A DNA stretch of 32,000 bases, from contig NC_010632.1 in the NCBI RefSeq assembly GCF_000020025.1, positions 180,001-212,000 of the forward strand, in the 5' to 3' direction. Position 1 is the first letter of the stretch; every line of letters starts with the position of its first letter. A program made the translations under genes and the position numbers. Shown here piece after piece: positions 1 through 25,025 of this stretch. Below the pieces are notes generated by a model. It was not told the DNA's origin, did not search any database, and worked only from the letters and a program-made list of their open reading frames with translations. This stretch comes from Nostoc punctiforme PCC 73102 (lineage in GTDB: Bacteria > Cyanobacteriota > Cyanobacteriia > Cyanobacteriales > Nostocaceae).

Positions 1-1
1 T

Positions 2-1216
2 ATCTCTTTACGGGCAGGGAGTAGTATAGGCTCTGCAACTTTTGGTCAAGGTAAAAGTGGTAGTGTTTCAGTTAATTCAAACTCTATAGAAATAATTGGC
101 ACATCTACTGGTTTAGGTAACGCAAGTAACATTCAATCATCTACTTATAAAGATGGCAATGCTGGTAATTTAGAAATTAATAGTTCAAATTTATTATTAC
201 AAGATGGAGGTACTATTAGTACTAGTACTTTTGCTTCCGGCGATGCTGGTAATTTATTTATTAGATCCTCAGAAGCAATTACAATATCAGGAAAATACTT
301 AGACACATTAAGTGCTATATCTTCTTCAGCACCTATACTAAATGAACGCCTCAGAACCGGATTAAGATTACCTCCAGAGCCAACAGGTAGAGCGGGAAGT
401 TTAACTATTGATACTCAAAAGTTAACCATTTCTAATTTTGGACAGCTTAGTGTAATAAATCAAGGCTCCGGTGACGCTGGTACTATTAATATCAATACAG
501 ACAAAATCGATATTACAAATCAAGGGGGAATTACAGCGACAACTGCTGTTGGAGCAGGTGGGAACATCAATTTGAAAGCAGAAAATGTTCAACTGAATAA
601 TAGCTTTATATCTGCAACCGCAGGTACAAACGGCAGTACGGGCAATGGGGGCAATATTGGTATTGAAACAGGTGCATTAATATTGCAAAGTAACAGCCAA
701 ATTACAGCCAATGCCTCTGAGGGTAGGGGTGGGAACATCAAAATCAATACCCCAGGTTTATTTGCCTCGCCAGATAGCCAAATAAAAGCTACTTCAGAAA
801 GAGGAGTTAACGGCTCAGTACAGATTAACACTACTCAAATAGATATTGCTAACTCTGGGATTAGAAATACTGTCTTTCAGTCTCCACAACCGTTTAACAC
901 TTGCTCGCCAGAACCTCCTAACTTGCCGAGTGAACTAACTATCTCTGCTAAAGGAGGGCTTCCCGCTAGTCTTGATGATTTATCTAGCACTACACTGGGG
1001 TGGACAGACTCATCAGTACCCATCTCTTCTCAACAATTACCCCAATCTACTCAAACTGATAATACGGAAAATATAGTGGTAGCCCAAGGGTGGCGCAATA
1101 ACGGGGATGGGACTGTTAACTTTGTGATTACCCCAGATCCAAGTGACGATATGGGTGCGTACAGTTCGCCATTGAAATCTTCTTGCATCAAGAGAGTACC
1201 AGATGTAGGGGGTTAA
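2..1216 (+). CDS. Two-partner-secretion exoprotein (TpsA / filamentous-haemagglutinin-like beta-helix repeat protein), C-terminal part; 5' end lies outside the window
   Basis: My own translation of frame 2 is open from base 2 to the TAA at 1214-1216. The track's TTG start at 572 is therefore internal. Degenerate Gly/Asn-rich beta-helix repeats recur: GNAGNLEINSSNLLLQDGGTISTSTFASGDAGNLFI, GDAGTININTDKIDITNQGGITATT, GNGGNIGIETGALILQSNSQITANASEGRGGNIKINT. The tail ends with AKGGLPASL. A ShlB-type transporter gene follows immediately. Confidence 0.75.
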   Translation: MSLRAGSSIGSATFGQGKSGSVSVNSNSIEIIGTSTGLGNASNIQSSTYKDGNAGNLEINSSNLLLQDGGTISTSTFASGDAGNLFIRSSEAITISGKYLDTLSAISSSAPILNERLRTGLRLPPEPTGRAGSLTIDTQKLTISNFGQLSVINQGSGDAGTININTDKIDITNQGGITATTAVGAGGNINLKAENVQLNNSFISATAGTNGSTGNGGNIGIETGALILQSNSQITANASEGRGGNIKINTPGLFASPDSQIKATSERGVNGSVQINTTQIDIANSGIRNTVFQSPQPFNTCSPEPPNLPSELTISAKGGLPASLDDLSSTTLGWTDSSVPISSQQLPQSTQTDNTENIVVAQGWRNNGDGTVNFVITPDPSDDMGAYSSPLKSSCIKRVPDVGG

Positions 1217-1219
1217 ATA

Positions 1220-2917
1220 TTGAGTTTACATTTACTAGCGTATTTAACGGCAAGTCATTTTTCCTCGGCAGAACTTGAGTCAGGTGGCCTTCATCAAAAA
1301 AATCCGCCAACCATACAACAAACACCCCTGTCACCCACCCCTTTACCTCCAGCACCGCCACCATTAACGCTTCCAGCATCCTCTACTCCTTTGATTCCTC
1401 AAAGAACCCTTAAACCAAACAATTTCGTTAAAATCAAAGTTCAAGGTTTTCGATTTCAAGGAAATACAGTCTTTAATAATCAGGAGTTAGAGAAAGTATT
1501 ATCAGAATTCATTAGTCAGGAAATCACTTTTACTGATTTATCAAAAATTAGTGATAAGGTTACTGATTATTATGTAGAGCAAGGGTATATCAACTCTGGT
1601 GCATACATTGGTGTTGCCCAAAATCAATCTCTCAAGGTTGACAATGCTATAGTTACTGTCTCAATTGTTGAGGGACGAATAGAAAAAATCAATATTGTCG
1701 GCGGCAACAGACTACACAACTATATCCGCGCACGTATTCCACAACCGATTCTCAACAGTAAACGCTTATTGCCAGCACTACAATTACTTCAACAAGACCC
1801 ATTAATTGAGAAAATTACTGCTTCATTGAAAGAGGGAAGCAAACCAAGCCAAGCTATTTTGGATATTAATGTACAGCCCCAACAGGAATTTAAGGTTAAT
1901 ATTGGTCTAGACAACTACCGATCTCCAGTCATCGGAACTTTCCAGCGTCGCATTGATATCTCGCACAATAACATCCTGGGATTGGGAGACGGACTAAGCA
2001 TTGGTTACAGAAATACAGATGGCAGTAATGCTATCACCCTTGGTTATTCTGTACCTATCAACCCAAACAATGGTACTATCAGCCTTGTTTACGCAAATAT
2101 TTCCAACAATATCATTGAGCGACCGCTTAACGCGCTTGATATAGTAGCCGATGCAGGGGTCTATGAAATGACTTTGCGCCAACCTCTGATTCGGCAGGCT
2201 TCGGCTAACTCTGCACAAGAATTGGCATTGGGGCTGACTGTTTCGCGGCTAGAAAGCGAATCATCATTGCAAAATACTCCTTTTCCTATCTCGGCGGGCG
2301 CAGATGCTTCGGGGCGTACAAGGATTTTTGCACTCAGGTTTTTCCAAGATTGGGCAAATCGCAGCCTTAATCAGTCTTTTTACGCTCGTTCAACTTTTAG
2401 TTTAGGTTTAGATGCACTAGATGCTACCATCAATGCCAACCCTCCTGATGGGCGATTTTTTAGTTGGGTAGGCGAGGCTTTATGGTTGAAGCGTTTAGGA
2501 AATAGTAATACTTCTGTTGCTATCCGCTCACGCCTCCAATGGGCGGATAGACCTTTACCCGCTTTCGAGCAAATTAGTCTTGGAGGCATCAGCAATGTCA
2601 GAGGTTACAGGCAGGATACTTTTATATCTGACAATGGATTTCTCTTATCTACAGAACTACGCATTCCGGCCTGGAAAACGACTACGCAAGAATTACAGGT
2701 TGCTCCCTTCATTGACTTTGGCACAAGCTGGAACAATAGTTCTGATACTTTTAGCCCTGATGGTAGTTTAACCTCTATTGGTCTAGCTCTCCAATATCGA
2801 AGCGATCGCTTCAATGCCCGTCTTGATTGGGGCATTCCTCTAAATGAAACTAACTCAAACTCAAACACATGGCAAGAAAATGGAGTTTATTTTTCACTTA
2901 ACTATCAACTATTTTAA
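1220..2917 (+). CDS. ShlB/FhaC/HecB-family TpsB outer-membrane transporter (POTRA domain plus beta-barrel)
   Basis: 565-aa ORF with a Pro-rich linker followed by a POTRA-like segment (IKVQGFRFQGNTVFNNQELEKVLSEF...VTVSIVEGRIEKINIVGG). A long region of alternating beta-strand character follows and ends in the OMP-type C-terminus GVYFSLNYQLF. There is no in-frame ATG before the POTRA segment, and the only early start is the TTG at 1220, 4 nt after the TpsA stop. Confidence 0.85.
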   Translation: MSLHLLAYLTASHFSSAELESGGLHQKNPPTIQQTPLSPTPLPPAPPPLTLPASSTPLIPQRTLKPNNFVKIKVQGFRFQGNTVFNNQELEKVLSEFISQEITFTDLSKISDKVTDYYVEQGYINSGAYIGVAQNQSLKVDNAIVTVSIVEGRIEKINIVGGNRLHNYIRARIPQPILNSKRLLPALQLLQQDPLIEKITASLKEGSKPSQAILDINVQPQQEFKVNIGLDNYRSPVIGTFQRRIDISHNNILGLGDGLSIGYRNTDGSNAITLGYSVPINPNNGTISLVYANISNNIIERPLNALDIVADAGVYEMTLRQPLIRQASANSAQELALGLTVSRLESESSLQNTPFPISAGADASGRTRIFALRFFQDWANRSLNQSFYARSTFSLGLDALDATINANPPDGRFFSWVGEALWLKRLGNSNTSVAIRSRLQWADRPLPAFEQISLGGISNVRGYRQDTFISDNGFLLSTELRIPAWKTTTQELQVAPFIDFGTSWNNSSDTFSPDGSLTSIGLALQYRSDRFNARLDWGIPLNETNSNSNTWQENGVYFSLNYQLF

Positions 2918-5393
2918 AAGAATTAAGTACCTATTTTTAAGTTTAACATTGACGCTAATAGTAGTGTTTAACAATGGAGCAATATTAGCAACTCCCCCAA
3001 ACTTAGAAATAGCGCAATCTCTCACACAGCAAGGATTTTTACAATTATACAACGGACAGTCCGAAGCTGCTTTGAAAGCATGGCAATCAGCTTATCGAGC
3101 TTATGAACAATTAAATAACAAGCAGGGGATGAATGGCAGTTTAATTAACCAGAGTTTGGCACTTCAAGCACTAGGCTCTTATGCTAACGCTTGCCAAGTT
3201 CTTACTCAGGCTTTAGCACTAGAAAATAGAATTTGCCCTCATGCGTTAAAAGAACAAACTAATTCTTCTCAAATCTTATCTGATTTAAAAGAAATATTTC
3301 AAAAACAACCTATCCAAAATTTACAAATTATTGGTTTTTCTAATTTAGCTAATGTTTTCCGAGCTATGGGCGAACCGGAAGTTTCTTATACTATTCTGCA
3401 ATACTGTTTAACCTTCGCTGCACAATTACAAAAGAAAGAGATTCAAGATAACTTATTACTCAATTTAGCTAATACAGAAGTAACACTTTACAATCAAGCC
3501 AAGAGTAAATATCAACTCACTGATGACTTTACTGCTCAAAAGAAAGCACTGATTTTAGCCAAGTCTAAATTCGATGCTGCCCAAAAAGTATACGAAAAAC
3601 TCAGTAATAGCCCAAGTACAGTTTCTCTACAAGCTAAACTAAACTGGTTAAAGTTACTCATAGATAATACATCAATACAATTGTCACAATACTTACCTTT
3701 AAGTAATTCTGTTTCTAGACTAATAAATGATATTCTCACCAATTTGAAACAAATTGAAACGTTATCCAAGGTTGATTCAATTTATAGCAAACTTAAATTA
3801 TCTCATAACTTACTAAAAATCACCCAAAGTAATAACTTGAAAGTGAAACAATTCACAGATAACAATTTACAATCTATAGCCTTATCCTTATCACAGGAAG
3901 CATTAGCTAGTGCCAAGAAGTTAAATAATTTTAGAGCAATTGCTTATGCTAATAGTACTTTAGGTGAAATTTACGCTGCTGGTGGAGAATTATCAAAAGC
4001 TGAGAGTTCGTATCATGATGGGATGTTATACGCTCAATCAGTACAGGCTTGGGATATCGTTTATCAATGGCAATGGGAACTAGCTCGGCTTTATAAAACA
4101 TCTGGTAAAATCGAGCAAGCTAATAAATTTTATTCTACTGCTATAAAAAATCTTGATAAAGTACGTGGTGATGTTTTACTGTTTAACTCTGATATTCAAT
4201 TTGCTTTCACAGAAAAAGTAGAGCCACTTTACCGCGAATACATATCATTATTACTTAACAAGAATAATTCTAATAAAAACTACAATAGACAAGCTATTAA
4301 AATTCAAGAACAACTTAAATTTGCTGAAGTAGAGAATTTCTTGCGTTGTGGTAAATTTGCTGAAAATGCCCTAGATGCAAGATTGGATAGCGGATTAAAA
4401 GATTTGGATTATATTGTTTACCTCATTAAATTAGATGACCGAGTAGAGGTGCTTGTTAAAACTTCTCAAAATATCTATCGTCACACAATAGATTTAGATA
4501 TAATTGGTGAACCTCTGACTAATTTCTTCAATATTATCCAGAATTTAGAATTCGTTGATACTAAAGGTTATAATTTTCTCACTTATTCGCAAGCAGTTTA
4601 TCAGCTTTTGATTCAACCTATCAAACAATATTTACCCTCATCAGGCAAAATAGGTTTCGTCCTAGATAGTTATTTTCAAAATCTGCCCCTAGATATGTTA
4701 TATGATGGGCAACAATATTTATTAGAAACATACATTATTTCTGTAGGTTCTAGTGCTAAACAATTGCGGCAATCGATGCTCAAACCAGCTGCAACGTTAG
4801 CTAGTGGCGTTTCTAAAATTGGCCCTAGTTTTAGTAATCCTATCGTCCCTAGAGATTTACGTCCTTTACCTCAAGTCAGGTTAGAGATTGAGAATATTAA
4901 GAAAGCTAATCCCTCTGCCATTACATTACTTGATAGCGAATTTACCCATGAACGATTTAGTAAAGATATTGAAAACAATTCTTTTTGGGCTATTCATTTA
5001 AGTAGCCATGCTCAATTTAGCTCGGACATTGAACAAACCTTTGTCTTAGCATGGGATACTCCCCTGATGGTTAATGATTTAAAAGCTTTACTACAAAATA
5101 AAAGCAACCTTGATTTACTGGTGTTGAGTGCTTGCCAAACTGCCAAAGGTGATAGACGCTCCTTTTTGGGTATTGCTGGCATAGCTGCACAAGCTGGAGC
5201 GCGTAGTGTTTTAGCCAGTCTATGGCTAGTTGATGCTGATTCTACTGCTCAACTGATGACTCAATTTTATGAAGGACTGAAATCTGGACTTACCAAAGCC
5301 GAAGCATTAAGATCAGCACAACTCAGTTTATTAAAAAGTGACAAATATTTTCACCCATATTATTGGAGCGCATTTATTCTCGTTGGCGGATAA
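2880..5393 (+). CDS. CHAT-domain (caspase-like) protease with N-terminal signal/anchor sequence and TPR-like helical repeats
   Basis: The ORF is open from 2844, and ATG codons lie at 2844 and 2880. The N-terminus KRIKYLFLSLTLTLIVVFNNGAILA-TPP looks like a signal peptide or anchor. About 600 aa of helical repeats follow. The C-terminal domain has a caspase-type dyad: IHLSSHAQF (His codon 5007-5009) and LLVLSACQTAKGD (Cys codon 5133-5135), then YWSAFILVGG. The start is uncertain and overlaps the TpsB 3' end. Confidence 0.85.
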   Translation: MEFIFHLTINYFKRIKYLFLSLTLTLIVVFNNGAILATPPNLEIAQSLTQQGFLQLYNGQSEAALKAWQSAYRAYEQLNNKQGMNGSLINQSLALQALGSYANACQVLTQALALENRICPHALKEQTNSSQILSDLKEIFQKQPIQNLQIIGFSNLANVFRAMGEPEVSYTILQYCLTFAAQLQKKEIQDNLLLNLANTEVTLYNQAKSKYQLTDDFTAQKKALILAKSKFDAAQKVYEKLSNSPSTVSLQAKLNWLKLLIDNTSIQLSQYLPLSNSVSRLINDILTNLKQIETLSKVDSIYSKLKLSHNLLKITQSNNLKVKQFTDNNLQSIALSLSQEALASAKKLNNFRAIAYANSTLGEIYAAGGELSKAESSYHDGMLYAQSVQAWDIVYQWQWELARLYKTSGKIEQANKFYSTAIKNLDKVRGDVLLFNSDIQFAFTEKVEPLYREYISLLLNKNNSNKNYNRQAIKIQEQLKFAEVENFLRCGKFAENALDARLDSGLKDLDYIVYLIKLDDRVEVLVKTSQNIYRHTIDLDIIGEPLTNFFNIIQNLEFVDTKGYNFLTYSQAVYQLLIQPIKQYLPSSGKIGFVLDSYFQNLPLDMLYDGQQYLLETYIISVGSSAKQLRQSMLKPAATLASGVSKIGPSFSNPIVPRDLRPLPQVRLEIENIKKANPSAITLLDSEFTHERFSKDIENNSFWAIHLSSHAQFSSDIEQTFVLAWDTPLMVNDLKALLQNKSNLDLLVLSACQTAKGDRRSFLGIAGIAAQAGARSVLASLWLVDADSTAQLMTQFYEGLKSGLTKAEALRSAQLSLLKSDKYFHPYYWSAFILVGG

Positions 5394-6379
5394 CTCGTTT
5401 GCTCCTTGACCTTTGTGTGTGCCGCAATCTTTATACCAGCTTCTGCTAAAGCTAACTCTACAGTATTATTTGCTTGTTGTGCTAATTTCTTAGCTGTTAA
5501 ATACGCTTCATTAGCTTGTTGAGGAAAATTAGCTATTAAGTAGCGATCGCCTAATAATCTATAAATCGTTGGGTTCGTTGAACCTGCTTTAGCTCTAGCG
5601 TCTAACACTTTTATCGATTCGTTGACTAAATTGTATGACTCATATACTGCATCCATATCAATCGCCAATTCATCAAGCGGCTGTTGAAGGTTCTTGAGAA
5701 CGTTAATTGTCTTTTCTACTTCTTGTATATTGTCTGTGGCTAATAGCAACAACAACGAGTTACTGCCATCTATTACTCTATCGCCCCGCATGGCAACTAT
5801 ATCTAAAGTGTATGCTTGACCTGGTTTCAATGCTGGCTCTTGGGGCGGATAGGTTAAACTTTCTCCTTTGACTGCCACCTCCCAGCTAATGCCTCCATTT
5901 CCTCGCATACGCACAATGTAATCAGTTGCTCCCTTTGGTTTAGACCAAGATATTGTCGGGCGCTCTTGATTGATTACTGCTCCATAAGGTGTCATCTTTG
6001 TAGGTTTGTTCTCTTCATCCGGCCCTTTAGGGATGACACAGCTTCTTCCTTGTAAAACGTTGCATCCTCTACCTTCGTTCACTTTTAATGGCAAGCATTG
6101 TTTCCCGACAACATCACTAGGAATGTCTAGGATTTTTCCTCTTGGGTAACAGAAGATTTTTACCTTTCCACCATTAGCTGCAACAACTCTATCCTCACTA
6201 CATAATTTTTTTGAAGGTTGATAACGACTATCTCCACTTATCACTTTCGCTATAGGTTCGCAAGAGACTTTAGATTGCCGATTTGCCCTCACTACCTCCT
6301 GTCCCCACACACGACTTTCAGTGACGTTAACTAATATTAATCCTAATATAATGGCTCCAATCTGAATTCTCTTGAACAT
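5360..6379 (-). CDS. Secreted protein: Cys-rich N-terminal region, a beta-rich domain tentatively DUF928-like, and a helical TPR-like tail
   Basis: 339-aa ORF with a signal peptide (MFKRIQIGAIILGLILVNVTESRVWGQ). About 8 Cys lie in the first 120 mature residues. The segment PTISWSKPKGATDYIVRMRGNGG..WEVAVKGESLTYPPQEPALKPGQAYTLDIVA resembles, from memory, the DUF928 pattern seen next to CHAT and ShlB genes in cyanobacteria. The 3' end overlaps the CHAT gene 3' end convergently by 34 nt. Confidence 0.55.
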   Translation of the reverse strand: MFKRIQIGAIILGLILVNVTESRVWGQEVVRANRQSKVSCEPIAKVISGDSRYQPSKKLCSEDRVVAANGGKVKIFCYPRGKILDIPSDVVGKQCLPLKVNEGRGCNVLQGRSCVIPKGPDEENKPTKMTPYGAVINQERPTISWSKPKGATDYIVRMRGNGGISWEVAVKGESLTYPPQEPALKPGQAYTLDIVAMRGDRVIDGSNSLLLLLATDNIQEVEKTINVLKNLQQPLDELAIDMDAVYESYNLVNESIKVLDARAKAGSTNPTIYRLLGDRYLIANFPQQANEAYLTAKKLAQQANNTVELALAEAGIKIAAHTKVKEQTSYPPTRINALQ

Positions 6380-6429
6380 GGGATTTATATACTTGTTCTT
6401 CTACAAACTGTTTTTCAAAGTACTAAAAT

Positions 6430-8295
6430 TTATTTCTTTTTAAATATCCTCTCTATTAATTCCCCTCGCCATTTTTGTACTTCTGGCAACCACGTATCCA
6501 TCCTTGCCAATAAACATATTTCACCGTAACCACTTGCAGAATTTATATCTCCTAACGCTTCTTTCGCTTTCGATAACAAGCAATACACATCAACTCTTTG
6601 TGAATCTAACTTAAATGCTGTTTGCAAATCTTTATCCGCTCCTTGATAATCTTTTTGCGTCAGTTTCGCCCAGGCTAAATTTTTATACAATGCTGCTCTT
6701 AACTGTTTATCACTAGATGGGGCTTTATTCAATCCTTCTATTGCTAGTTTTTGAGCTTGAGTATAATTTCCTTGCAAATTATTCAACCTAGACAAATTAT
6801 TCACAGCAATTAACGCCTGCTCCTGACCAGATTTAATTGCTAAGTTATATTGTTCTTGAGCTAAATCATATTTTTCTTGAGTTTCATAAAAGTTAGCTAA
6901 ATTGTAGTGTCCTGTCCAGGAGTTAGGCTCTAGCCTAAAAAGCTGTTGGTAACTTTTATTAACACAATTTATATCTCTCAAAAATTGACAAGTCAATGCT
7001 AGATTATTATATGAATCTATATCATTCGGATTATATTTAGCCGCTAAATTATAATATTTCTTTTCTAATTCTAAATTTTCTTTAACTCTTCCTGCTATAT
7101 CAAAGTAGAATTTGGAAATTTGATTACTTAATTCCGGGCGGATTTTTACTGCTTGGTCAAATAGCTTTTGCGCTTGTTCTGTATTATTTTCTTGTTCTAG
7201 CTTTTGCCCTTGTGCTACTAAATTATTTGCATAAACTGGGAATCCAAGTGTATAAGCTAGTAATCCTATCAAACTAACGCTGGCGATCGCTGCACTGAAC
7301 ATGAAGGGTTTCGACCTTGTTAGTCTATAAATCTTATTTTGCTTAGGCAGTTTTTTCAGTCGCCACAAAATAATTCCCGTTGTTTGTGGTCGATGTGCTG
7401 GATTTGGAGCCATCAACTCATCAATAAAATCCGCCAATGGCTTATCTATCTGTGGTGCTTTATGTCTCCAGATCAGTCTCCCCACATCATGATTTGTCTC
7501 TAATTCTCTTAATTTTACCCCCGTCACCAACCGAACCATAGTCCGACCTAAAGCATAAAAATCCGACTGTGGAACCGCATGACCATGCGCTTGTTCTAGC
7601 GGACTGTAATAATGGGAAATTACTTTGGTGATTTCGTAATTACTGATAGTTCTGTCCGTTCCTCCAGTCGAGCTTACTTTGGCTAAATATGTATCTGTTA
7701 TCTGGCGTGCAGCCCCAAAATCTATTAAATATAAATGTCCATCCGGATCTAGAATTATATTACTTGGTTTTATATCTCTATGAAAAAATTCTGTATGATG
7801 TACTAAATCTAGTATTGCTACTATTTGTTCCAACCAATCTAGTGCTAACTCTTGTGAAATTGGTGGATGAGTTTCTATCCAATTTTCTAAATTTTCCCCT
7901 TCAATTTTATCCATGATTAAGCATCGGAATTTGAAGGGGCTGTTCTCTGATTCTAGGGTAAAGTAGTCATCATCTCCATTTGTCTGCGGAATATTTGGAT
8001 GATTTATTAATTGCAAGGCTAAAACCTCGCGCTCAAATCGCTCCACAAATTGAGGCGAATTCCATTTTAATATCTTCATGACTCGTCGTTTACGCCCAGG
8101 ACTCCACTGCGTCCCAGAATCCTCTATTTCAAAAATCTCATTTGCCGTGAACGGGTTGCGATCTAATTCTCTTAATGGTTTAACTAGACGGACACGTTCA
8201 TTGATCACTAAAGATGTACCGCAAGAAGCGCATTTGTAGGCATCATCAGGATTCTGCCGTCGTTCACACAGAGGATTTATACAGTAACACGACAT
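6430..8295 (-). CDS. Receptor-type Ser/Thr protein kinase: N-terminal Cys4 zinc ribbon, Hanks kinase domain, one TM helix, C-terminal TPR repeats
   Basis: The N-terminus CINPLCERRQNPDDAYKCASCG is a 4-Cys prefix. Kinase motifs are VMKILK (catalytic Lys), HRDIKPSNIIL (catalytic loop) and DFGAAR. A TM segment FMFSAAIASVSLIGLLAYTLGFPVYA follows. About 250 aa of TPR-like repeats complete the protein (YNLAAKYNPND, YNLANFYETQEKYDLAQEQYNLAI, and similar). Confidence 0.9.
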   Translation of the reverse strand: MSCYCINPLCERRQNPDDAYKCASCGTSLVINERVRLVKPLRELDRNPFTANEIFEIEDSGTQWSPGRKRRVMKILKWNSPQFVERFEREVLALQLINHPNIPQTNGDDDYFTLESENSPFKFRCLIMDKIEGENLENWIETHPPISQELALDWLEQIVAILDLVHHTEFFHRDIKPSNIILDPDGHLYLIDFGAARQITDTYLAKVSSTGGTDRTISNYEITKVISHYYSPLEQAHGHAVPQSDFYALGRTMVRLVTGVKLRELETNHDVGRLIWRHKAPQIDKPLADFIDELMAPNPAHRPQTTGIILWRLKKLPKQNKIYRLTRSKPFMFSAAIASVSLIGLLAYTLGFPVYANNLVAQGQKLEQENNTEQAQKLFDQAVKIRPELSNQISKFYFDIAGRVKENLELEKKYYNLAAKYNPNDIDSYNNLALTCQFLRDINCVNKSYQQLFRLEPNSWTGHYNLANFYETQEKYDLAQEQYNLAIKSGQEQALIAVNNLSRLNNLQGNYTQAQKLAIEGLNKAPSSDKQLRAALYKNLAWAKLTQKDYQGADKDLQTAFKLDSQRVDVYCLLSKAKEALGDINSASGYGEICLLARMDTWLPEVQKWRGELIERIFKKK

Positions 8296-8618: not shown

Positions 8619-8695
8619 AAGAATTAAATAGCCAGTTGATTTGATTTTACAAACGTTTCTTGCGGAACTCACGTACCAAAAGGAAAACTTCTTTT

Positions 8696-10201
8696 ATGGA
8701 TTTGAGCATTGAGCATGGGGTAAATTTTCAAAATTCTCTTTCTTCATCCTTTTTTACACAAGAGCAACAGTCTCTGGAGTTACTACAGTCTTCCCCAACC
8801 GTATCCTTTTACCAAGCTCTAACTGTAGTCAACAATATAATTTTTACTGAAAAAAATCGCTCCTTGACTAAACCTGAGATCGCCGTCCTCAAGGGTGCAT
8901 GGGAAAACCAAGATTTTTCTGAGATAGGGCAGCAGTCTGGCTATAAGGCTGGCTATTTACAGCGTCGTATAGCTCCTCAACTGTGGAACTTGCTTTCTGA
9001 AACAGTAACCAAAGGACAACAGGTCTTAAAGAGGAAAGTACGAACTCTGCTCACAGAAGTTGTTATAAACTATTATCAATCTAATCCCCACTTAGAACTT
9101 CCTTTATTTGATAGCCAGTTTATTAAAGGTCAACTTCCTAGCTCTAAACTATCCAATTTTTACGGTAGGCAACAAGAACTCTACCACTTAAAGAAATTAA
9201 TTAACAACCACCGATGCATATCTTTGGCAGGTGTTCCTGGGGTTGGCAAAACTGCTTTGTCCGCAAAACTCTTAGCAGAACTTAGCTTAGACTCTACTCA
9301 ACATTTTGATTTCCTGGTTTGGAAATCAGTAACTCACTCAGTACGCCTTCAAGATTTATTGAGCGAACTAATTGATTTAATTCAACCAGATACTTCTCTC
9401 AACTTACCTGAATATACTCAAGCTCTGATTACCGCCTTAATTAAGCATTTACAATCTCATCGTTGTTTACTCGTACTGGATGGTTTTGAGGTTCTGTTTA
9501 AAACTCCTAATTTAGAACAAAGATTAGACTATAAAATATTCATGCGTCGGCTGTTAGAGGAAGAGCATAAGAGTTGTTTATTACTGACTTGCCGAGCTTT
9601 ACCTAATGAAATTTATGCTATGAGCAAAGATGACCGATCTATCCTCTATTTTCGAGTAGACGGTTTAGATACAGATGCTGCTTTAAATTTTTTATCGGAT
9701 CAAGGTTTAACAGACAAAAACGATTGTCTTGATTTAATTAAAACCTATCGTAGTAATCCCTCAGAATTAGCCACAGTAGCTAAAAAGATTAAACATTTTT
9801 TCTCTGGCAGTACAGAAATATTCTTTCAACATAAAACTACTTTTATTACTGATGAGTTTCAATCAATGTTAGATGAAACTTTTGGTGAATCTTTGGAGCA
9901 AACCGAACGTTATATTATGATTTATTTAGCTCAAAGATTATCCCTAGACCCCGCACCAATTAGTTTTAGTGACCTCTTAATACAGATCAATTCTTCTAAT
10001 AATATATCGGCTTCTACTTCGGCAATTATTAAAGCTTTAGAAAAATTAGAACAACTATCTTTAATTGAAAGCATTAAAGATCCAAACACTAAAGAAATCG
10101 CCTTTACTTTGCAACCTGTAGTCAAAAAATACATTAATACTGATCCCTTGGGTCTAGTAAAGCCACAAAACTCTTTCCCCTCATTAGCTAACGCATTTTA
10201 G
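8696..10201 (+). CDS. STAND-class P-loop NTPase (NB-ARC/NACHT-like) with an N-terminal HTH-like domain and no C-terminal repeat sensor
   Basis: Walker A is LAGVPGVGKTALSAKLL and Walker B is RCLLVLDGFEVLF. The segment LLLTCRALP follows. The N-terminal segment LTKPEIAVLKGAWENQDFSEIGQQSGYKAGYLQRRIAPQLWNLLSE resembles a LuxR/sigma-region-4-type HTH, as found at the N-terminus of many cyanobacterial STAND/WD40 proteins. The track start at 8660 is a TTG, so the ATG at 8696 is preferred. Confidence 0.8.
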   Translation: MDLSIEHGVNFQNSLSSSFFTQEQQSLELLQSSPTVSFYQALTVVNNIIFTEKNRSLTKPEIAVLKGAWENQDFSEIGQQSGYKAGYLQRRIAPQLWNLLSETVTKGQQVLKRKVRTLLTEVVINYYQSNPHLELPLFDSQFIKGQLPSSKLSNFYGRQQELYHLKKLINNHRCISLAGVPGVGKTALSAKLLAELSLDSTQHFDFLVWKSVTHSVRLQDLLSELIDLIQPDTSLNLPEYTQALITALIKHLQSHRCLLVLDGFEVLFKTPNLEQRLDYKIFMRRLLEEEHKSCLLLTCRALPNEIYAMSKDDRSILYFRVDGLDTDAALNFLSDQGLTDKNDCLDLIKTYRSNPSELATVAKKIKHFFSGSTEIFFQHKTTFITDEFQSMLDETFGESLEQTERYIMIYLAQRLSLDPAPISFSDLLIQINSSNNISASTSAIIKALEKLEQLSLIESIKDPNTKEIAFTLQPVVKKYINTDPLGLVKPQNSFPSLANAF

Positions 10202-10890
10202 AGAAGTATTTATGCTCTTAAGAAAAAACAAAAATCTAGCTACTACAATTTTAACAACAAATAATTATGTAGAGATTTTACTCCAAAAACTGTTTTTTTC
10301 TACACAAGTAGCTTTGAATCCAGCCGATCATTGGCTTGCGCTGCACGAGCCTAAGCAAAAAGTTTTCCCCGCCAATCTGAAGATGAAGCTTCTAACCTAC
10401 TACTAGGGTTGGCTTGAGAAAAACCCTTATAAAATAGGGTAATTTTACTAAGTTTAACAAAACAGGAGGTAGTATAACTCAGATTTAAATCTTACTAGAT
10501 GCGAAAAGGTGCGAAGTTTTGTAAGATCAAGCTTGTCAACTACGTAAAAAGGAGGAACGCAGACTGTACATAAAAATTTAGGCAAAACGCACTAGGGAGT
10601 ACGCTTTGCCTTAAGGTGAAACAAACGACATATTTTAGGGCGGGGTTGATCTCGGCTGACAAAGAAAGTGGCACTTAAAGTTTGGCGACTTGAAACCACT
10701 CACTTGTCAAAAGATACCCACGCTGCTTTGCTATTGCCATTATACTCTAAAGCAATACGCACGGCCAGTTTTTGCTGACCGTTGGTAGTATTTTGACAAA
10801 AAATTTATATTTGAAATATGTAAATTTTTGTAAAAGCAGCGTCATAAGTAATTCGCAAAACCCTACGGAAAGCAGCACAAAGCGCATCTA

Positions 10891-11016
10891 CGCAATTCGC
10901 AATTGCAGAGTAATTGAATAATTAATGAATTCAGACTCATTTACTCTACTTCGTCTATGAGAAGGAAGTACGGGCGTAAATATAACTGCGAATTGCGAGT
11001 TGGTAATTGCGAATTG
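10891..11016. repeat. Hairpin-type element with heptamer-array arms just upstream of the replication gene
   Basis: The left arm is CGCAATTCGCAATTGCAGAG (10891-10910). The right arm is GCGAATT GCGAGTT GGTAATT GCGAATT (10989-11016, period 7). CGCAATTCGC (10891-10900) is the exact reverse complement of GCGAATTGCG (10989-10998). An extra AATTCGCAA copy is at 10850-10858. Confidence 0.5.
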
Positions 11017-11069
11017 ATTTAATCGACCCCCTCTGAAACTTGACAATAAAGTTATCGGAGGAATCTACC

Positions 11070-14000
11070 GTGCAAAATAACCAATGCCCAGAAGAGATGG
11101 GCGTTGGGGATCAAGTGTTGCCAGGTAACATTTGTGAATACCCCAATTATCTTACTGCCGCCGAGTATCATGAATTAGCGGTGGGCAGCGCCATTCATCC
11201 GGCGTTGATTGAGCGCAACTTTTTCCATGTAGAGGGAGAATCAGTTTATGATTTCCTGTTCATATCTGATAAAGTCCCACGTAAGAATGCGGGTCGGGTA
11301 ACAGATGGATACATTAAAATGTATCAGCATCTATTACTGGGTGGGACGTGGATTCAGTCACTTGACCCCTTTAAAAACTGGCAACCGATGGAGTGGGGAA
11401 GGATCAAGCCCAACTTTCCTCGCATTGATTGGCACTCCTGTAAACCCGTCAAATACGAGTCACCGCCTAAAACCCCCAACCGCGTTACCTACTTTGATGT
11501 CGCTAACCCCATTTGGGACAAAGTTGCAAAGCGTTATTTAATTAAGCGCTATCATTCACTTTTAACATTGCGCTTACTGGATCAACTCAATCCACTAATA
11601 TTTTGGGAGTGGGTAAAGCAACATCCAGAGATTCCAGTTATCTTATGCGAGGGCGAAAAAAAAGCGGCCTGCTTGCTCTCTTTAGGGTTTGTAGCGATCG
11701 CACTCCCTGGAATCTGGAACGGGCGCGTGGGCAAACAAGATTTTGATGAACGGTTGCATCCAGATTTAATGCCCTTGGCACAACCGGGACGCAAGTTCAT
11801 TATATTATTTGATTACGAAACTAAAGCTAAAACCAGGTGGTCAGTTTACCAGGCAACTGTTCGCACAGCAAAAGCAATTGAGTCTGCTGGTTGTGAATGT
11901 GAAGTTGCGCTGTTGCCGGGGACAGAGAAAGGTGTAGATGATTTTGTTGTGGCGCGGGGCGAAGATGCTAACGCTCTATTAACTGCGATTATTAACGATG
12001 CCAAATCTCTTTTTGACTACCAGCGCTCATATCGAGCTAAGAAATGGGGACTCAGTAAATACAAACCGGATGTCACAGTCAATATTAAATATTTGACCCA
12101 AGCACTCTGCATTCCGGATCTGGAGGAAAAATGTTCATCTGTCCCGCCACTTTACGATATTTCACAAGAGCAATTGTTCACACCTTGTGTTAGCTCTACA
12201 AGCTGTGGGGAGGGAGAAGGAAAACAAGAATTAACAGATTCTAGCTCCTTTAACGCCAAACCAAGTACCCAAAATCCTAAAAAATCTTTCCGTTTTCCAG
12301 AAAAAGGACTGGTTGTACTCTGGAGCGATATGGGCACTGGCAAAACTGAACTTATGCGCTGGTGGCGTGACCAAAATCCTGATGCCAGATTTCTCAACAA
12401 TGGACATCGGGTTAACTTGTTGAAAAATCTTGCCGAACGTTTGCGGACGGCGATGTATTCAGACTTGGGTTACACAGGTTTAGCCCAGGCCCAAGCCCTT
12501 AGTATTACTATTGACAGCTTGCACAAACTCAATACTCAGTCTCTCACCTACGGCTGCATATTTATTGATGAAGCCTGCCAATACCTCACCCACCTACTGC
12601 ACAGTAATACTTGCAAACAGCACCGTGCCGCCATTTTGGAGGTACTGGAATATATAGTATACAACGCGCCACTGGTCGTCATCGCTGATGCACACATGGA
12701 TGACCTGACTGTGGATTTCTTCCGCTCCATGCGACCACTCGGTGAAGTACCTTACATCATTAAAAACGAGTGGCGAAACGGGGAGCGCACAATTTATTGG
12801 TACGAGGGGGATAATTCAAGCGCCCTAGTTGCCCAAATCTCGGCAGCGTTGATGCTTGGAGAAAAAGTTATGGTTGCCAGTGACAGTAAGCGTTTTATCA
12901 AAAAACTCGACAAATCCTTTACTATCAAGTACGAAGAATCTAGTAGTTCGCCAAGTGAACTTGGCTCTTTAAAGGGTAAAGGGGATACTTCGACTGCGCT
13001 CAGTAACCGGGTAAAGGAAGAATTAACAGATTCCTCCTCCGCCCTTTCCCCCTTACCCCTTACCCCTTGCCCAGCCCGTAGGACTTCATACCGCATTTGG
13101 TCGGTTCATTCAGACAATTCTGGCAGTGATGAGAATGTCGCTTTCATCAAAGATATCACCAACGCCGTCAAAAACTTTGATGCCTTGTTCACCTCTCCCA
13201 GTCTCGGTACTGGTGTCGATATTTCTGAGTATCATTTTGATTTAGTATTTGGTGTGTTTCACGGCGTTTCCCAAACTGCTACTGAGTGCGCTCAACAACT
13301 GTACCGTTATCGTCCAAAAGTCCCGTTTCATATTTGGGTGGCAAAGCGTCCTCCCTTCGGTTACAAGGATACAAATGCATCCAAAATCAAAGAGCGCCTC
13401 TTGCAAACCAATGAAATGACTGCTTTTCTGTTGCGAATTGACAGAGAAACAGGCAAGCGGGGAGCGGAGAAAGATTGGGCGCTTGAGGCTTACTGCCAAA
13501 TTATGGCTAACCGCCACTATTCTCTCAATAATCTCCGTGATGATTTGCGATCGCTCCTCACCGAAATGGGCAATACATTTATATATGTGGGCAGTGATTC
13601 AGATCCTCAGTCTCTCGAAAGTCTTAAAGCAGCAGCACAAGCTTTGGATCGTGCCCACAATTCGGCTGTTGCCAAGGCCAAGAATATTACTTTGAGCGAG
13701 TACCGTGCCCGTCAGAGCAAAGATTACCTTGACCCTAATGAAATTTTTGAATGCGAAAAATTCCGCATTTCTGATTCTTACGGCATCGAAGTAACCGAAT
13801 CGCTCGTAGAAATGGATAAAGGTGGCCGCTTAATTAGAGCAATTGCTGGACTTGAGGCCATTTTAGCCCCACCCGAAGAATCGTTTACTGACCCCAAAAC
13901 TGGGCAAACTTATCCTACGCCACCAACAATTGTCACCCAAAAAGACCGCACCGAGCGCGACAATCTACCTTTGTGCATCGACTGGGGCAATTATTCGGCG

Positions 14001-14816
14001 CGGTGGCTGGCTAGATTTAACCTGGGGCTGCATCAAATTCTCACTTCTTTAATGAAGGGTGATGAAGTTACTGCCGACGATTCCACCTTACTCAAGATGA
14101 CGGAGATCGCTAAAAACTGCGCTGCTCACGTCAAAGCAATTCTTGGGTTTACTATTCCCAGTGACTGTAAACCTATTTGGTTGCTGGCCACAATGCTAGA
14201 GCAGCTGGGGCTAAAACTGACTTTCCGCAAGCAGGGTAAACGGGGTCAACAGGTGAAACTTTTCTCTTTATCTAAAGAGGAATTAGAATTTGCAATGCAT
14301 GTAATTGCTCATCGTGAAACGAAGCGTAATCAAAAAGAAAATCGAACCTATTATGCGACCCAAACCCCTGCTGCGTATAGTGTAAACCCCAATCAGCAGC
14401 CCGTATCCACACCCCCCCTTGATGCTATAGGGAACTCCCATGAAGGAGGGGTGGATACTACAGATAAGAGCAGGGGAGCAGGGGAGCAAGGGAGCAAGGG
14501 AACAGGGGAGTTGAGGGACACAGAAGAAATTTTTACAAATTCTTTCCCCTCTGCCCCCCTGCCCCCCTGCCCCTCTGCTCTCTTCACAGATCGCACTACC
14601 CTACTCCATTGCGTGGAAATACTTCGCTCTGGCATTACCAAGGGAGTGGACGCAATCAAAGGCATTCTCAAGCAATGGACTGGGGATTTGCGCTGGGAAA
14701 CGGTGCTGGAACTTGAAGCGATCGCGGCAAATGAACTGCGACTTGTCGAGGCTGCAGTACCGGAATTTTACACCTTGCTAAATGAAGAAGTGTTGCCAAT
14801 GGAGGGGGCTAGCTAG
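11070..14816 (+). CDS. Plasmid replication protein, CyRepA1 family (Toprim/DUF3854 primase-like N-domain plus P-loop helicase domain)
   Basis: Toprim-like motifs are PVILCEGEKKAACLLSLGFVAIALPGIWNG and EKGVDDFV. Helicase Walker A is WSDMGTGKTE and Walker B is CIFIDEACQYL. The size and architecture match the cyanobacterial plasmid Rep typified by Synechocystis pSYSA Slr7037. The ORF is open from the TTG at 11040. The GTG at 11070 is preceded by GGAGGA (11057-11062), and an ATG at 11097 is an alternative start. Confidence 0.85.
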   Translation: MQNNQCPEEMGVGDQVLPGNICEYPNYLTAAEYHELAVGSAIHPALIERNFFHVEGESVYDFLFISDKVPRKNAGRVTDGYIKMYQHLLLGGTWIQSLDPFKNWQPMEWGRIKPNFPRIDWHSCKPVKYESPPKTPNRVTYFDVANPIWDKVAKRYLIKRYHSLLTLRLLDQLNPLIFWEWVKQHPEIPVILCEGEKKAACLLSLGFVAIALPGIWNGRVGKQDFDERLHPDLMPLAQPGRKFIILFDYETKAKTRWSVYQATVRTAKAIESAGCECEVALLPGTEKGVDDFVVARGEDANALLTAIINDAKSLFDYQRSYRAKKWGLSKYKPDVTVNIKYLTQALCIPDLEEKCSSVPPLYDISQEQLFTPCVSSTSCGEGEGKQELTDSSSFNAKPSTQNPKKSFRFPEKGLVVLWSDMGTGKTELMRWWRDQNPDARFLNNGHRVNLLKNLAERLRTAMYSDLGYTGLAQAQALSITIDSLHKLNTQSLTYGCIFIDEACQYLTHLLHSNTCKQHRAAILEVLEYIVYNAPLVVIADAHMDDLTVDFFRSMRPLGEVPYIIKNEWRNGERTIYWYEGDNSSALVAQISAALMLGEKVMVASDSKRFIKKLDKSFTIKYEESSSSPSELGSLKGKGDTSTALSNRVKEELTDSSSALSPLPLTPCPARRTSYRIWSVHSDNSGSDENVAFIKDITNAVKNFDALFTSPSLGTGVDISEYHFDLVFGVFHGVSQTATECAQQLYRYRPKVPFHIWVAKRPPFGYKDTNASKIKERLLQTNEMTAFLLRIDRETGKRGAEKDWALEAYCQIMANRHYSLNNLRDDLRSLLTEMGNTFIYVGSDSDPQSLESLKAAAQALDRAHNSAVAKAKNITLSEYRARQSKDYLDPNEIFECEKFRISDSYGIEVTESLVEMDKGGRLIRAIAGLEAILAPPEESFTDPKTGQTYPTPPTIVTQKDRTERDNLPLCIDWGNYSARWLARFNLGLHQILTSLMKGDEVTADDSTLLKMTEIAKNCAAHVKAILGFTIPSDCKPIWLLATMLEQLGLKLTFRKQGKRGQQVKLFSLSKEELEFAMHVIAHRETKRNQKENRTYYATQTPAAYSVNPNQQPVSTPPLDAIGNSHEGGVDTTDKSRGAGEQGSKGTGELRDTEEIFTNSFPSAPLPPCPSALFTDRTTLLHCVEILRSGITKGVDAIKGILKQWTGDLRWETVLELEAIAANELRLVEAAVPEFYTLLNEEVLPMEGAS
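12966..13072. repeat. In-frame small inverted-repeat insertion inside the rep gene (G-rich arm ... C-rich arm)
   Basis: The left arm is CTTTAAAGGGTAAAGGGGATA and the right arm is CCCTTTCCCCCTTACCCCTTACCCCTTGCCC; they are imperfectly complementary. The element contains the 16-nt core AAGAATTAACAGATTC (13018-13033). That core also occurs at 12226-12241. The element is translated as low-complexity ...KGKGDTSTALSNRVKEELTDSSSALSPLPLTPCP... Confidence 0.5.
14468..14580. repeat. In-frame G-rich/C-rich hairpin element inside the 3' part of the rep gene
   Basis: The left arm is GAGCAGGGGAGCAGGGGAGCAAGGGAGCAAGGGAACAGGGGAG (14468-14510). The right arm is CCCCTCTGCCCCCCTGCCCCCCTGCCCCTCTGCTC (14546-14580). 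The loop is 35 nt. It is translated as GAGEQGSKGTGELRDTEEIFTNSFPSAPLPPCPSAL without breaking the frame. Confidence 0.55.
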
Positions 14817-16452: not shown

Positions 16453-18222
16453 CTAAATTGCAATCGTTGGGTGCAAAAAAGCGCTTTCCAACCGCTGCTG
16501 TAATCGCGTATATCGCAGTTGTCCGTCACTAGAACGCAAAGCCTTGGATATCGCTTTCTTGGAACCAACGACGATCGCTAACTGCTTGGCACAAGTTAAT
16601 GCTGTGTAAAACTGTTTACGAGACAACATCATATAAGGCTGCGTATAGATTGGCAGAATCACCACCGGATATTCTGACCCCTGGCTTTGATGAATGGTGA
16701 GGCTCCAGGACAGGGCAATTTGATTTAAGTCTGCTCCCGTCCTAACAACAGTATGCTTACCATACTGTACAGTAACTTCCATCTCTTCAGGATCAATGGC
16801 CTTGATAATTCCGAAGTCGCCATTAAAAACTTCGTGATTATAATCATTAGTCAGTTGAATGATCCGATCGCCTTCTCGTAATAAATTCCCGCCCCTGGTA
16901 ATCTCTACTTTGTCGGGACTGGGCGGATTAATCAACTGCTGCAATACGGTATTGAGGTTACGAGTCCCAAGCAAACCCCGCGACATGGGGCAAAGCACTT
17001 GCACATCAGTAGCTAGATTGTAACCCAGGCGGGGAATCAAGTCTGTGATGATTTCGGATATTGCTTTAACACCATGTTTGGGGTGATGACCGCCGCCGTG
17101 CCACAGACACTCAGACACGGGATTATCGGAAATCGGTTCAATTGTGGGAAACTGGCTTCGGTTAATTTGGTGAGCAGCGATGATAATTGCGCTCTGTTGG
17201 GCTTGCCTAAATACCTTGGTCAACCGCACCACCGGAACGTGACCAGAATTAATCAAGTCAGAAAGGAATTGACCGGGGCCGACAGAGGGTAACTGGTCAA
17301 TGTCACCCACTAGCAGTAGTTGGGAACCGTATTGTATCGCCTTTACCAAAGAAGATGCCAGAAACAAATCAAGCATACTAGCTTCTAGCGCGACAATTGC
17401 GGTATGGGGTAAAGGGTTTTGATTATCGCGTAAGAAGCCCATTGTCTTTGGGTCAAATTCCAACAAGCAGTGTATCGTCTTGGCTTCGAGTTGTGTGATT
17501 TGACTCAGGCGTTGAGCAGCGCGTCCAGTTGGCGCAGCTAAGGCGATAGATTTGCCCATTGCTTTCCACAGAGAGACTATGATCTGGGTGGTGAAAGTTT
17601 TACCGCAACCGGGGCCACCAGTAAGAATCATTACCCTTGAATATGCAGCCATTTCTACCGCTAGCCGTTGCTGTGGTGAAAGTTTGATTTTACGACTCTT
17701 GGTGAAGCGCTCAATCCAGGCGCGAACACGAGGCATATCTTGTGCAACTGGTTGGCAAAATCTAGATTGTATTAATTGAGCAAGGTTCTGTTCAGTGTGA
17801 AAGTACGTTGGTAGATAACATAGCAGCGTTTGGTCTTCGCTTTTCTCGCGGATTAAGTCATCCTTGAGTGCCATGTCTTTGATAATATCAGCAAGGGCAT
17901 CTTCTTCAGGTGTGTGATCTGCTGTAGTCAGCAGTTTGATAACATTCTCAATGAGTTTTGGCTGGGGTAAATAGCAATGCCCATCGGCAGCAGCTTCGTT
18001 CAAAACATGAATTAAACCAGCACGGTAACGGAACTGACTATCAGGCGCAACTCCTAAATTAAAGGCAATTTTATCAGTTCTCAGAAAACCAATACCGTAG
18101 ATGTCAGCAGCTAACTGGTAGGGATTGCTGGTGAGAGTAGCGAGTTCTTCATCCAAGTAATGCCTGTAAATTTTGACTGCATAAGTAGTAGAAACGCCAT
18201 GACTGTGGAGAAATAGCATTAA
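16453..18222 (-). pseudogene. RecD2-like SF1 helicase, 5'-truncated and with altered catalytic motifs; read as one ORF with the IS630 fragment
   Basis: Homology begins abruptly at LFLHSHGVSTTYAVKIYRHY (the helix-hairpin-helix region), so the usual N-terminal part is missing. Walker A LTGGPGCGKTF and LLLVGDIDQLPSVGPG are intact. Motif II reads ALEASM where DEASM is expected. TIHQSQGSEYP stands where HKSQGSE is expected. Motif VI reads YTALTCAK where YTA.TRAK is expected (TGT codon, one transition away from CGT). Confidence 0.65.
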
Positions 18223-18306
18223 ATAGATGTAAGAAAATAAAATAAAAATAAGTTGATAGCTAAATAAAGATATTTTGAATTGAAGCAGAGACTTGATATT
18301 TGGGTT

Positions 18307-18570
18307 ATGCCATCGGCGACGGCGACCCGGACGCGAACAATCCCACAAACTATCGAGTTTGCCCCAGTACCAGCGATGAATTGTGTCGCGTACAGTCTGT
18401 GGATGCCATTTTAAGTATTGTGCGATCTTTAGCACTGTCCATCCAGCGGCTGATAATCGTAGTACAGTGGCACGACTTTGAGTTCTTGGTGGTATACCTT
18501 TTGCTTGAGTGAGTGCTAGTAGGGCTTGATCTTCTATTGGTGACAGGTCAACTTTTAAAGGCGCTGGCAT
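18307..18570 (-). mobile_element. IS630-family transposase N-terminal HTH fragment (about 88 codons), fused in frame to the helicase remnant
   Basis: MPAPLKVDLSPIEDQALLALTQAKGIPPRTQSRATVLRLSAAGWTVLKIAQYLKWHPQTVRDTIHRWYWGKLDSLWDCSRPGRRRRW is the characteristic IS630/Tc1-type winged-HTH N-terminus. No DDE catalytic domain follows. An AT-rich junction (18223-18306) links it to the helicase. Confidence 0.65.
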
Positions 18571-20202: not shown

Positions 20203-20236
20203 AAATACTCCAACAAATGATTATGAAAATTGTAAT

Positions 20237-20374: not shown

Positions 20375-20411
20375 AAAATTAATTCCCAATTTCCTTGCTT
20401 GACCATTTAAT

Positions 20412-25024: not shown

Positions 25025-25025
25025 G

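Follow-up and report, generated by a model that had tools for sequence, protein, structure and literature searches.

A plasmid-borne module of Nostoc punctiforme linking two-partner secretion with a predicted extracytoplasmic TPR-CHAT protease

The subject of this analysis is a 32,000-nucleotide stretch of Nostoc punctiforme PCC 73102 DNA (NCBI RefSeq assembly GCF_000020025.1, contig NC_010632.1, positions 180,001 to 212,000 of the forward strand), referred to here as the window, and all coordinates without a prefix are positions within it. Its left end holds a module of six genes encoding a two-partner secretion (TPS) exoprotein (TpsA), the outer-membrane transporter TpsB, a caspase-like protease that combines tetratricopeptide repeats (TPR) with a CHAT domain, a small protein named here X, a receptor kinase with TPRs, and a STAND NTPase with an N-terminal helix-turn-helix (HTH) type domain. 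An earlier note, made from the letters of this DNA alone, had proposed a unit of five envelope-directed genes ending at 8295. Open reading frame (ORF) calls and Pfam matches place all five genes where the note had put them; the boundary has to be moved, as the conserved unit reaches 10201 and takes in the STAND NTPase as its sixth gene. We tentatively read the module as the plasmid-borne form of a cyanobacteria-wide system built from TpsA, a periplasmic TPR-CHAT protease and a DUF928-type protein, in which CHAT would act on the TpsA tail while the kinase and the STAND NTPase would signal across the membrane. The features of the module are as follows.

2..1216, forward strand: TpsA exoprotein, C-terminal 404 aa with beta-helix repeats, in an open frame from base 2; the N-terminus lies to the left of the window
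902..1213, forward strand: TpsA C-terminal module, with the elements C, (G)GLP, a variable linker, VAQGW..dG.v.f and C in that order
1220..2917, forward strand: TpsB outer-membrane transporter with POTRA domain and ShlB/Omp85 barrel (PF03865 at 5.7e-30, PF08479 at 3.3e-13, PF01103 at 1.7e-17)
2844..5393, forward strand: TPR-CHAT caspase-like protease (PF12770 CHAT at 2.1e-53, with TPR matches)
5360..6379, reverse strand: protein X, 339 aa, with signal peptide, small Cys-rich domain, FN3-like sandwich and TPR-like helical domain (alignments A2 and A3, AlphaFold, Foldseek)
6430..8295, reverse strand: receptor Ser/Thr kinase with 4-Cys zinc-ribbon prefix, Hanks kinase domain, one transmembrane helix and C-terminal TPRs (Pkinase at 1.4e-24, 4Cys_prefix_kin at 1.3e-08)
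8660..10201, forward strand: STAND NTPase (NB-ARC at 2.2e-11, NACHT at 3.1e-10) with N-terminal HTH-type domain

Conserved linkage in two types of loci

Evidence for a functional unit comes from gene neighbourhoods. A CHAT profile applied to one genome per species yielded 80 loci, the ORFs of which were scored with the window proteins. Two types separate cleanly: type 1, with a CHAT identity of at least 35% to the window protein (24 distinct loci), and type 2, with an identity of 32-35% (33 loci flanked by 5 kb or more on each side). Type-1 loci carry protein X without exception (24/24), the kinase and the STAND NTPase in 23 cases each, and TpsA in 22; every locus that is short of one of these four lies on a contig that ends at the module edge or no more than about 60 bases from it. 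TpsB is nearby in 13 of the 24 and may be adjacent, displaced or absent. The hosts come from several cyanobacterial orders and include Nostoc, Nodularia, Komarekiella and Leptolyngbya, together with metagenome-assembled genomes (MAGs) labelled Chroococcales, Thermosynechococcaceae, Coleofasciculus and Synechococcales.

Gene order within type 1 varies while content stays constant despite inversions, for example in L017, where STAND, kinase, X and CHAT follow one another and TpsA is convergent, and in L005. The STAND gene is either divergent from the kinase gene or co-directional with it with a 1-nt overlap, and in L009, L011 and L029 STAND, kinase and X form a single operon with 1-nt overlaps. 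The gene order of the window (TPS, with or without ShlB, then CHAT, X, kinase and STAND) is repeated around homologues of X at 36-37% identity in Nodularia and a second Nostoc, and a Leptolyngbya boryana plasmid carries the same set with identities of 36% for CHAT, 32% for X (6e-40) and 29% for STAND (2e-49). Of the 24 type-1 loci, 14 carry a CyRepA1/DUF3854 replication (rep) gene, which lies 700-1300 bp beyond STAND in 13 and at the opposite end of the module in L005.

Type 2 is a sister arrangement, mostly chromosomal, with its own partners. TpsA is found in 27 of its 33 loci, a true DUF928 protein in 25, a CHAT-CHASE2 membrane protein in 23 and TpsB in 8, and X, the kinase and the STAND NTPase occur in none. 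The flanks hold no rep gene, and several of these loci lie on megabase chromosomal scaffolds. The CHAT-CHASE2 protein fuses a cytoplasmic CHAT-like domain to a CHASE2 sensor (CHASE2 at 2.1e-65). Type-2 clusters often also carry a DUF1822 protein and a small protein with no Pfam match that to us looks sigma-70-like; L047:827-3193, L039:605-1567 and L041:1191-1841 are examples of these type-2 features.

In most of the 80 loci the gene immediately preceding CHAT encodes TpsA. A 20-kb window makes up a fraction of a percent of a genome and, on the assumption of a few tens of TPS genes at most, TPS-CHAT adjacency would arise by chance at about a few percent, versus an observed 82-100%. Co-occurrence in the 80-locus scan is therefore far above chance. 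The earlier note had stated that its first four families recur as neighbours in many cyanobacterial genomes; the recurrence is real and persists through rearrangement and deep divergence, while the DUF928 part of that statement belongs to the sister type 2. The association is specific to a CHAT subfamily, since more distant CHAT proteins are found in other surroundings; the one from Crocosphaera (L007), for example, has no TPS context.

A further line of evidence is the C-terminus of TpsA. The 404-aa fragment in the window has no Pfam match and aligns with the full-length TpsA of the Nostoc flagelliforme plasmid pNFSY06 (phmmer score 350), an orthologue of 740 aa (L001) that contains the TPS domain PF05860 at 2.6e-57. 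Precomputed matches place the same domain in the TpsA orthologues of L003, L004, L005 and L089. Orthologues are short, at about 740-890 aa. The only two cysteines of the fragment, C301 (902-904) and C395 (1184-1186), bound its C-terminal module. Of 82 TpsA ORFs collected near CHAT genes, the 74 that reach 400 aa entered an alignment of C-termini, and almost all of them share this one unannotated Cys-bounded module, which has no Pfam domain match and reads, in order, Cys; S.F.tGRGGLP..P...W.D; a variable linker; ivEAqGW...dG.v.L.a; and a near-terminal Cys. This last Cys is invariant in the alignment (A4), and E, A and G of EAxGW are nearly so. Source-named matches to a profile of the tail, mostly short fragments, are all cyanobacterial bar one MAG of Candidatus Obscuribacterales. 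One of two loci chosen by the tail alone turned out to contain ShlB, TPS, CHAT and DUF928 beside a DUF3854 rep gene. A single contig (L094:698-16800) bears a DUF3854 rep gene, ShlB, a frameshifted TPS gene, an IS605 TnpB, TPR-CHAT and a true DUF928, so the DUF928 form of the system can also adjoin a plasmid rep gene.

The protease, protein X and the signalling proteins

The CHAT domain scores 182.1 bits against a Pfam cutoff of 24 and covers profile positions 3-288 of 289. The likely start codon is the ATG at 2880. Two conserved histidines, H718 (4995-4997) and H722 (5007-5009), and the catalytic cysteine C764, whose codon the earlier note had correctly located at 5133-5135, are invariant in an alignment of 18 homologues that reaches down to 29% identity. 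The intact caspase-type His/Cys dyad described in that note is thus confirmed, and by its sequence the protein is a complete caspase-like domain with intact catalytic residues and a predicted peptidase. Hydropathy gives a single N-terminal hydrophobic segment, residues 29-50 (about 2928-2993), preceded by KRIK. Such a segment is found in 98 of 115 full-length homologues and has K or R before it in 93; a second, later segment is found in only 6. On this conserved pattern the TPR-CHAT protein is predicted to be extracytoplasmic, in agreement with the signal/anchor that had been proposed earlier. Its Cys pair C117/C131, present mainly in the CHAT subtype of the window, and the six Cys of protein X would fit an oxidising compartment. 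The AlphaFold model has a predicted local distance difference test (pLDDT) score of 82.8, and its best PDB matches in Foldseek are Csx29/Craspase, DdvA and separase.

The alignments of protein X (A2 and A3) display a signal-like N-terminus, six conserved Cys, a beta domain with the pattern RPxLSW...Y.V...LxPGxxY and a helical C-terminus; hydropathy agrees with the alignments on the N-terminus, and the protein is predicted to be extracytoplasmic, as the earlier note's description of a signal-peptide protein implied. The AlphaFold model consists of a small beta domain, an FN3-like sandwich and six TPR-like helices, with domain cores mostly at pLDDT >90. Foldseek matches include the C-terminal domain of MtxA, many FN3 domains and TPR proteins, and a PDB sequence-profile search concurs.

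The same note had called this protein DUF928-like, a description that survives in part. Protein X is not a member of Pfam DUF928: it matches no Pfam family, scores no DUF928 (PF06051) match even at E<=10, and the 10 distant family members tested have none either, while the true DUF928 neighbour in the sister cluster scores 5.6e-52. Profile-profile comparison of X with DUF928 neighbours in hhalign gives a probability of 50% when 26 sequences are used and 86.9% when 152 are used (E 4.1e-6, 149 columns over both domains in the same order), against 0.1% for a reversed control. Type-2 DUF928 genes often lie directly downstream of CHAT and in 8 cases are convergent with it, which is the position of X. 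X is thus likely to be distantly related to DUF928 and to take its place in type-1 loci. The CHAT and X genes are convergent and their 3' ends overlap by 34 nt (5360-5393), with overlaps of 20-53 nt in 14 of the 24 type-1 loci.

A word-based search for the X family returned 37 clusters, the source-named ones all Nostocales, and a full hidden Markov model search returned 182 representatives at E<=1e-30, mostly 300-370 aa long. Distant members again adjoin kinase, CHAT, ShlB and TPS genes in metagenome contigs. A few homologues stand in variant contexts. Among more distant X-like FN3-TPR proteins, one lies beside a TIR-TPR protein and giant TPR proteins in L088:6682-9077, and another beside an HTH_VMAP-M9-TPR protein in L091:3757-6134.

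The kinase scores 87.3 bits with Pkinase (cutoff 31.7) and has intact HRD and DFG motifs. Its lone hydrophobic segment, a transmembrane helix at residues 329-355, separates the kinase domain from the TPRs that follow. This single helix between the two domains is kept in 23 of 24 orthologues, and HRD/DFG in 23-24. The kinase domain is accordingly predicted to be cytoplasmic and the TPR domain extracytoplasmic, the topology that had been suggested from the window alone. The STAND protein exceeds its cutoffs for both NB-ARC (43.9 bits versus 23.5) and NACHT (40.6 versus 26.7), and its orthologues carry the PF26355 domain HTH_VMAP-M9. TpsB matches ShlB, POTRA_2 and Omp85, all above the curated Pfam cutoffs; its start lies one codon past the tpsA stop in the same frame (1214-1280).

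Proposed mechanism and its alternatives

Since the families recur together, CHAT and X are both predicted to be extracytoplasmic and the topology of the kinase is conserved, a secretion-coupled, envelope-located proteolytic and signalling system is a reasonable reading of the module. A system of this kind, with read-out through the kinase, had been put forward in the earlier note; its linkage and predicted location hold up, and its mechanism can be stated in conditional terms as follows. TpsA would be exported through the ShlB-type pore of TpsB, and its Cys-bounded C-terminal module would fold in the periplasm and leave the protein tethered, as in HMW1, HxuA and CdrA. The TPR array of CHAT may then bind the periplasmic tail, and CHAT may cleave it, so that TpsA is matured or released following the logic of LapG on CdrA. 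Protein X, with its FN3 and TPR domains, could be an adaptor or could inhibit the protease as securin does. The receptor kinase would sense conditions in the periplasm with its TPR domain and phosphorylate cytoplasmic targets, and the adjacent HTH-STAND NTPase would probably set transcription of the module, so that kinase and STAND together couple periplasmic state to gene expression.

Several characterised systems provide precedents for single steps. The C-termini of HMW1 and HxuA are held in the periplasm by a disulfide loop, and release of the adhesin CdrA, also a TpsA, follows cleavage of its tail in the periplasm by the Cys protease LapG, under cyclic di-GMP (c-di-GMP) control; proteases for TpsA maturation are usually not encoded in tps operons (PMC5422565). 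As with CdrA/CdrB and LapG/LapD of Pseudomonas aeruginosa, the window encodes a TpsA that its TpsB would export and that a periplasmic tail, the Cys-bounded module, may hold, a predicted periplasmic cysteine protease, and a predicted transmembrane signalling protein that would link cytoplasm and periplasm. It differs in that the protease is a TPR-CHAT protein of caspase fold rather than of LapG type and is encoded inside the tps locus, that a Ser/Thr kinase whose TPR domain is predicted to be periplasmic takes the place of a c-di-GMP receptor like LapD in the membrane, and that the module has a STAND NTPase and an FN3-TPR protein besides. The LapG, GGDEF, EAL and HAMP families have no match in the six module proteins, and the resemblance is therefore one of logic only. 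As in HMW1 and HxuA, two Cys bracket the C-terminal module of TpsA, which may act as a periplasmic plug, with both the disulfide and its location put forward by analogy; unlike in those anchors, the loop is about 90-110 residues long and has motifs of its own (EAQGW...), and no sequence similarity to them is established.

For the protease, the closest comparison is DdvA of Myxococcus xanthus, reported in 2024 and the only characterised periplasmic TPR-CHAT protein, the CHAT domain of which is proposed both to sense a signal and to cut (PMC11506125). The two share a TPR-CHAT fold of separase/craspase type located, in the window protein by prediction, outside the cytoplasm (Foldseek 8rw5 and 8rot, E about 1e-12). 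DdvA is, however, a transmembrane anti-sigma factor with a cytoplasmic zinc anti-sigma domain and a partner sigma factor of the extracytoplasmic function class, whereas the window protein has only a signal/anchor, with about 28 residues before its hydrophobic segment, and profile scans of the module proteins gave no match to sigma or anti-sigma families. The CHAT domain of DdvA also lacks three helices, while that of the window spans the whole Pfam model, and DdvA has no link to TPS. Csx29 of the type III-E CRISPR Craspase and separase, the best structural matches, have the same TPR-plus-CHAT architecture and His-Cys dyad; unlike the window protein, both are cytoplasmic, are regulated by RNA-guided Cas7-11 or by securin, and have neither a signal peptide nor a secretion context. 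The sister of the whole module is the type-2 cluster, visible in annotations but uncharacterised, with the same TpsA family and tail, a related TPR-CHAT, a small secreted protein often convergent with and adjacent to CHAT, and a membrane receptor; it differs in having a true DUF928 instead of X, a CHAT-CHASE2 receptor instead of kinase and STAND, and flanks free of rep genes.

A number of observations weigh against the proposed action of CHAT on TpsA. In type 1 the tail has only a degenerate form of the GRGGLP motif, too degenerate for a conserved cleavage site to be named, and the second of the two loci chosen by the tail alone is an orphan fragment. TpsB is absent from the sequence at 9 of the 24 type-1 loci (about a third, contigs cut at the module edge included), and in the clade of this Nostoc plasmid its N-terminal signal is very short and has no positively charged n-region (signals of other orthologues end in ...AQT). 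The predicted locations rest on hydropathy and Cys patterns, and a cyanobacterial Sec signal may also lead to the thylakoid lumen. The two closest plasmids carry decayed copies: in Nostoc flagelliforme pNFSY06 the CHAT gene is truncated to 385 aa (L001:14184-15341), and in pNSMS102 of Nostoc sp. MS1 the TpsB gene is split by an IS1380 transposase (L002:12560-16091), which implies that the module is dispensable, at least in culture. Gene content, domain identities, intact catalytic residues, predicted topology and conserved linkage are results of the analysis, while we infer that TpsA is the substrate of CHAT, what X does, which way signals run and what the biological outcome is.

The best of the competing explanations is an envelope-sensing conflict or defence system resembling DdvA, which we regard as unlikely but worth serious consideration. 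Here TPR-CHAT and X would sense a foreign protein in the envelope, for example from a phage or from conjugation, and respond by proteolysis; a signal would run through the kinase to STAND and on to a response or cell death, and TpsA would be a surface bait or sensor. In favour of this reading, the top structural matches include DdvA, whose periplasmic TPR-CHAT is characterised and governs a defence island. Both STAND NTPases and Ser/Thr kinases are characteristic of conflict systems, and the HTH_VMAP-M9 domain of the STAND orthologues is tied by name to vWA-MoxR-associated (VMAP) conflict systems. In type 2 the partner is a CHASE2 sensor joined to a cytoplasmic CHAT, and the module itself is plasmid-borne. 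The kinase also matches the PADLOC models PD-T4-6 (7.2e-89, residues 3-372) and mad6 of MADS6 (1.9e-32). The PD-T4-6 models are, however, numerous and broad kinase profiles, and these matches may simply reflect the broad cyanobacterial family of 4-Cys-prefix kinases. Beyond them and a marginal hit of STAND to PDC-S27 (1.5e-4), the PADLOC scan is empty, with TpsA, TpsB, CHAT and X matching no model. A Pfam scan of the STAND protein reveals neither sensor repeats nor a recognisable killing effector, and this reading does not account for why a TpsA with a conserved tail is invariably linked to the module. Abortive defence, which the earlier note had also suggested, is a possible reading with little direct support.

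A role in the backbone of CyRepA1 plasmids is quite improbable. It would make the module a device for surface or entry exclusion or for mating-pair adhesion, or would couple replication or transfer to the state of the envelope. The position of the rep gene 700-1300 bp past STAND in 13 of the 24 type-1 loci (and at the other end in L005), its recurrence in Leptolyngbya and L094, and the presence of TrbI and a VirB4-like ATPase in the window speak for such a role. Against it, type 2 shares the TpsA-CHAT-DUF928 core and has flanks free of rep genes, with some of its loci on megabase chromosomal scaffolds; close relatives tolerate the loss of CHAT or TpsB, and no homologue of known exclusion or partition proteins turned up.

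We also consider it very unlikely that CHAT is a transpeptidase or assembly factor like the clan-CD proteins PorU or GPI8, removing the tail and joining TpsA covalently to the envelope. Clan-CD enzymes with sortase-like activity exist, and the scheme would use the same conserved parts as the release of TpsA by cleavage; no acceptor was found, however, nor a motif shared by the two types of cluster. Growth inhibition on contact or kin discrimination by a CdiBAI-type system, which the earlier note had raised as contact-dependent competition and which a TpsA/TpsB pair on a mobile element brings to mind, deserves hardly any credence, as the TpsA orthologues are short, the last 404 aa contain no toxin or pretoxin domain in Pfam, the C-terminus is a conserved module and not a polymorphic one, and the next genes encode TpsB and CHAT with no small immunity gene.

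To return to TpsA as the partner of a periplasmic CHAT, a bolder version would see both cluster types as one widespread and undescribed class of TPS, in which a periplasmic TPR-CHAT and a DUF928-type partner control a tethered TpsA on the cell surface and relay its state across the inner membrane to kinase and STAND on plasmids or to a cytoplasmic caspase-like CHAT-CHASE2 receptor on chromosomes, as an outside-in proteolytic cascade for self/non-self or cell-fate decisions of multicellular bacteria. This extension appears unlikely.

The component families were already known; the literature searched contains no description of how they are combined, of the family of protein X, of the tail of TpsA or of the division into two types of loci. 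Full-text searches returned nothing joining CHAT with DUF928, with two-partner secretion or filamentous hemagglutinin, or with CHASE2 in cyanobacteria. The search for DUF928 led to an unrelated WD40 survey, and a 2020 paper on conflict systems makes no mention of TPS or hemagglutinin. CHAT proteases are abundant in cyanobacteria and, to our knowledge, almost none has a known substrate. The tight link between TpsA and CHAT, which persists through rearrangement, names a candidate substrate in a genetically tractable organism, Nostoc punctiforme, and the module offers a concrete route to testing what cyanobacterial caspase-like proteases do. The analysis also defines elements missed by current annotation, namely the X family of FN3-TPR proteins related to DUF928, the C-terminal module of TpsA and the kinase-STAND pairing, and flags a recurrent cargo beside CyRepA1 replication genes, which are under development as cyanobacterial vectors.

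Replicon and flanking DNA

The replicon is a plasmid, as the earlier note had held. This follows from a CyRepA1 score of 317.9 bits (cutoff 200), from TrbI and a weak VirB4/TraC-like ATPase in the window, and from the CHAT protein, which is 100% identical to a protein of a 254,918-bp plasmid of Nostoc punctiforme PCC 73102. Genes outside the module include an integrase and the following features.

11040..14816, forward strand: CyRepA1-family plasmid replication gene (NF042913 CyRepA1; DUF3854 at 5.8e-45)
16453-18570: RecD2-like helicase with N-terminal HTH
22190-25024: weak VirB4/TraC-like ATPase
27927-29492: TrbI

Around the ATPase and TrbI runs a series of ORFs, mostly with no family matches (19525-31440), presumably genes of a type IV secretion or conjugation system of a divergent cyanobacterial kind. 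Methyltransferase genes stand beside tpsA in several loci (L001:9453-10301, L002:9445-10266, L005:6389-7213) and belong to unrelated families. A methyltransferase upstream of tpsA was considered as a seventh member of the module and rejected, being present only in close Nostoc relatives, with an unrelated one in Leptolyngbya.

An Rfam scan of the window gave no match, and promoter and terminator scans gave background levels only. The spacer between STAND and CyRepA1 (10202-11039) is 840 bp long, and a similar length recurs in 13 related loci. Within it, just upstream of the rep start (10845-11016), lie five copies of a AATTGCGAATTG-like motif in direct and inverted orientation, which are candidate iterons or a candidate operator.

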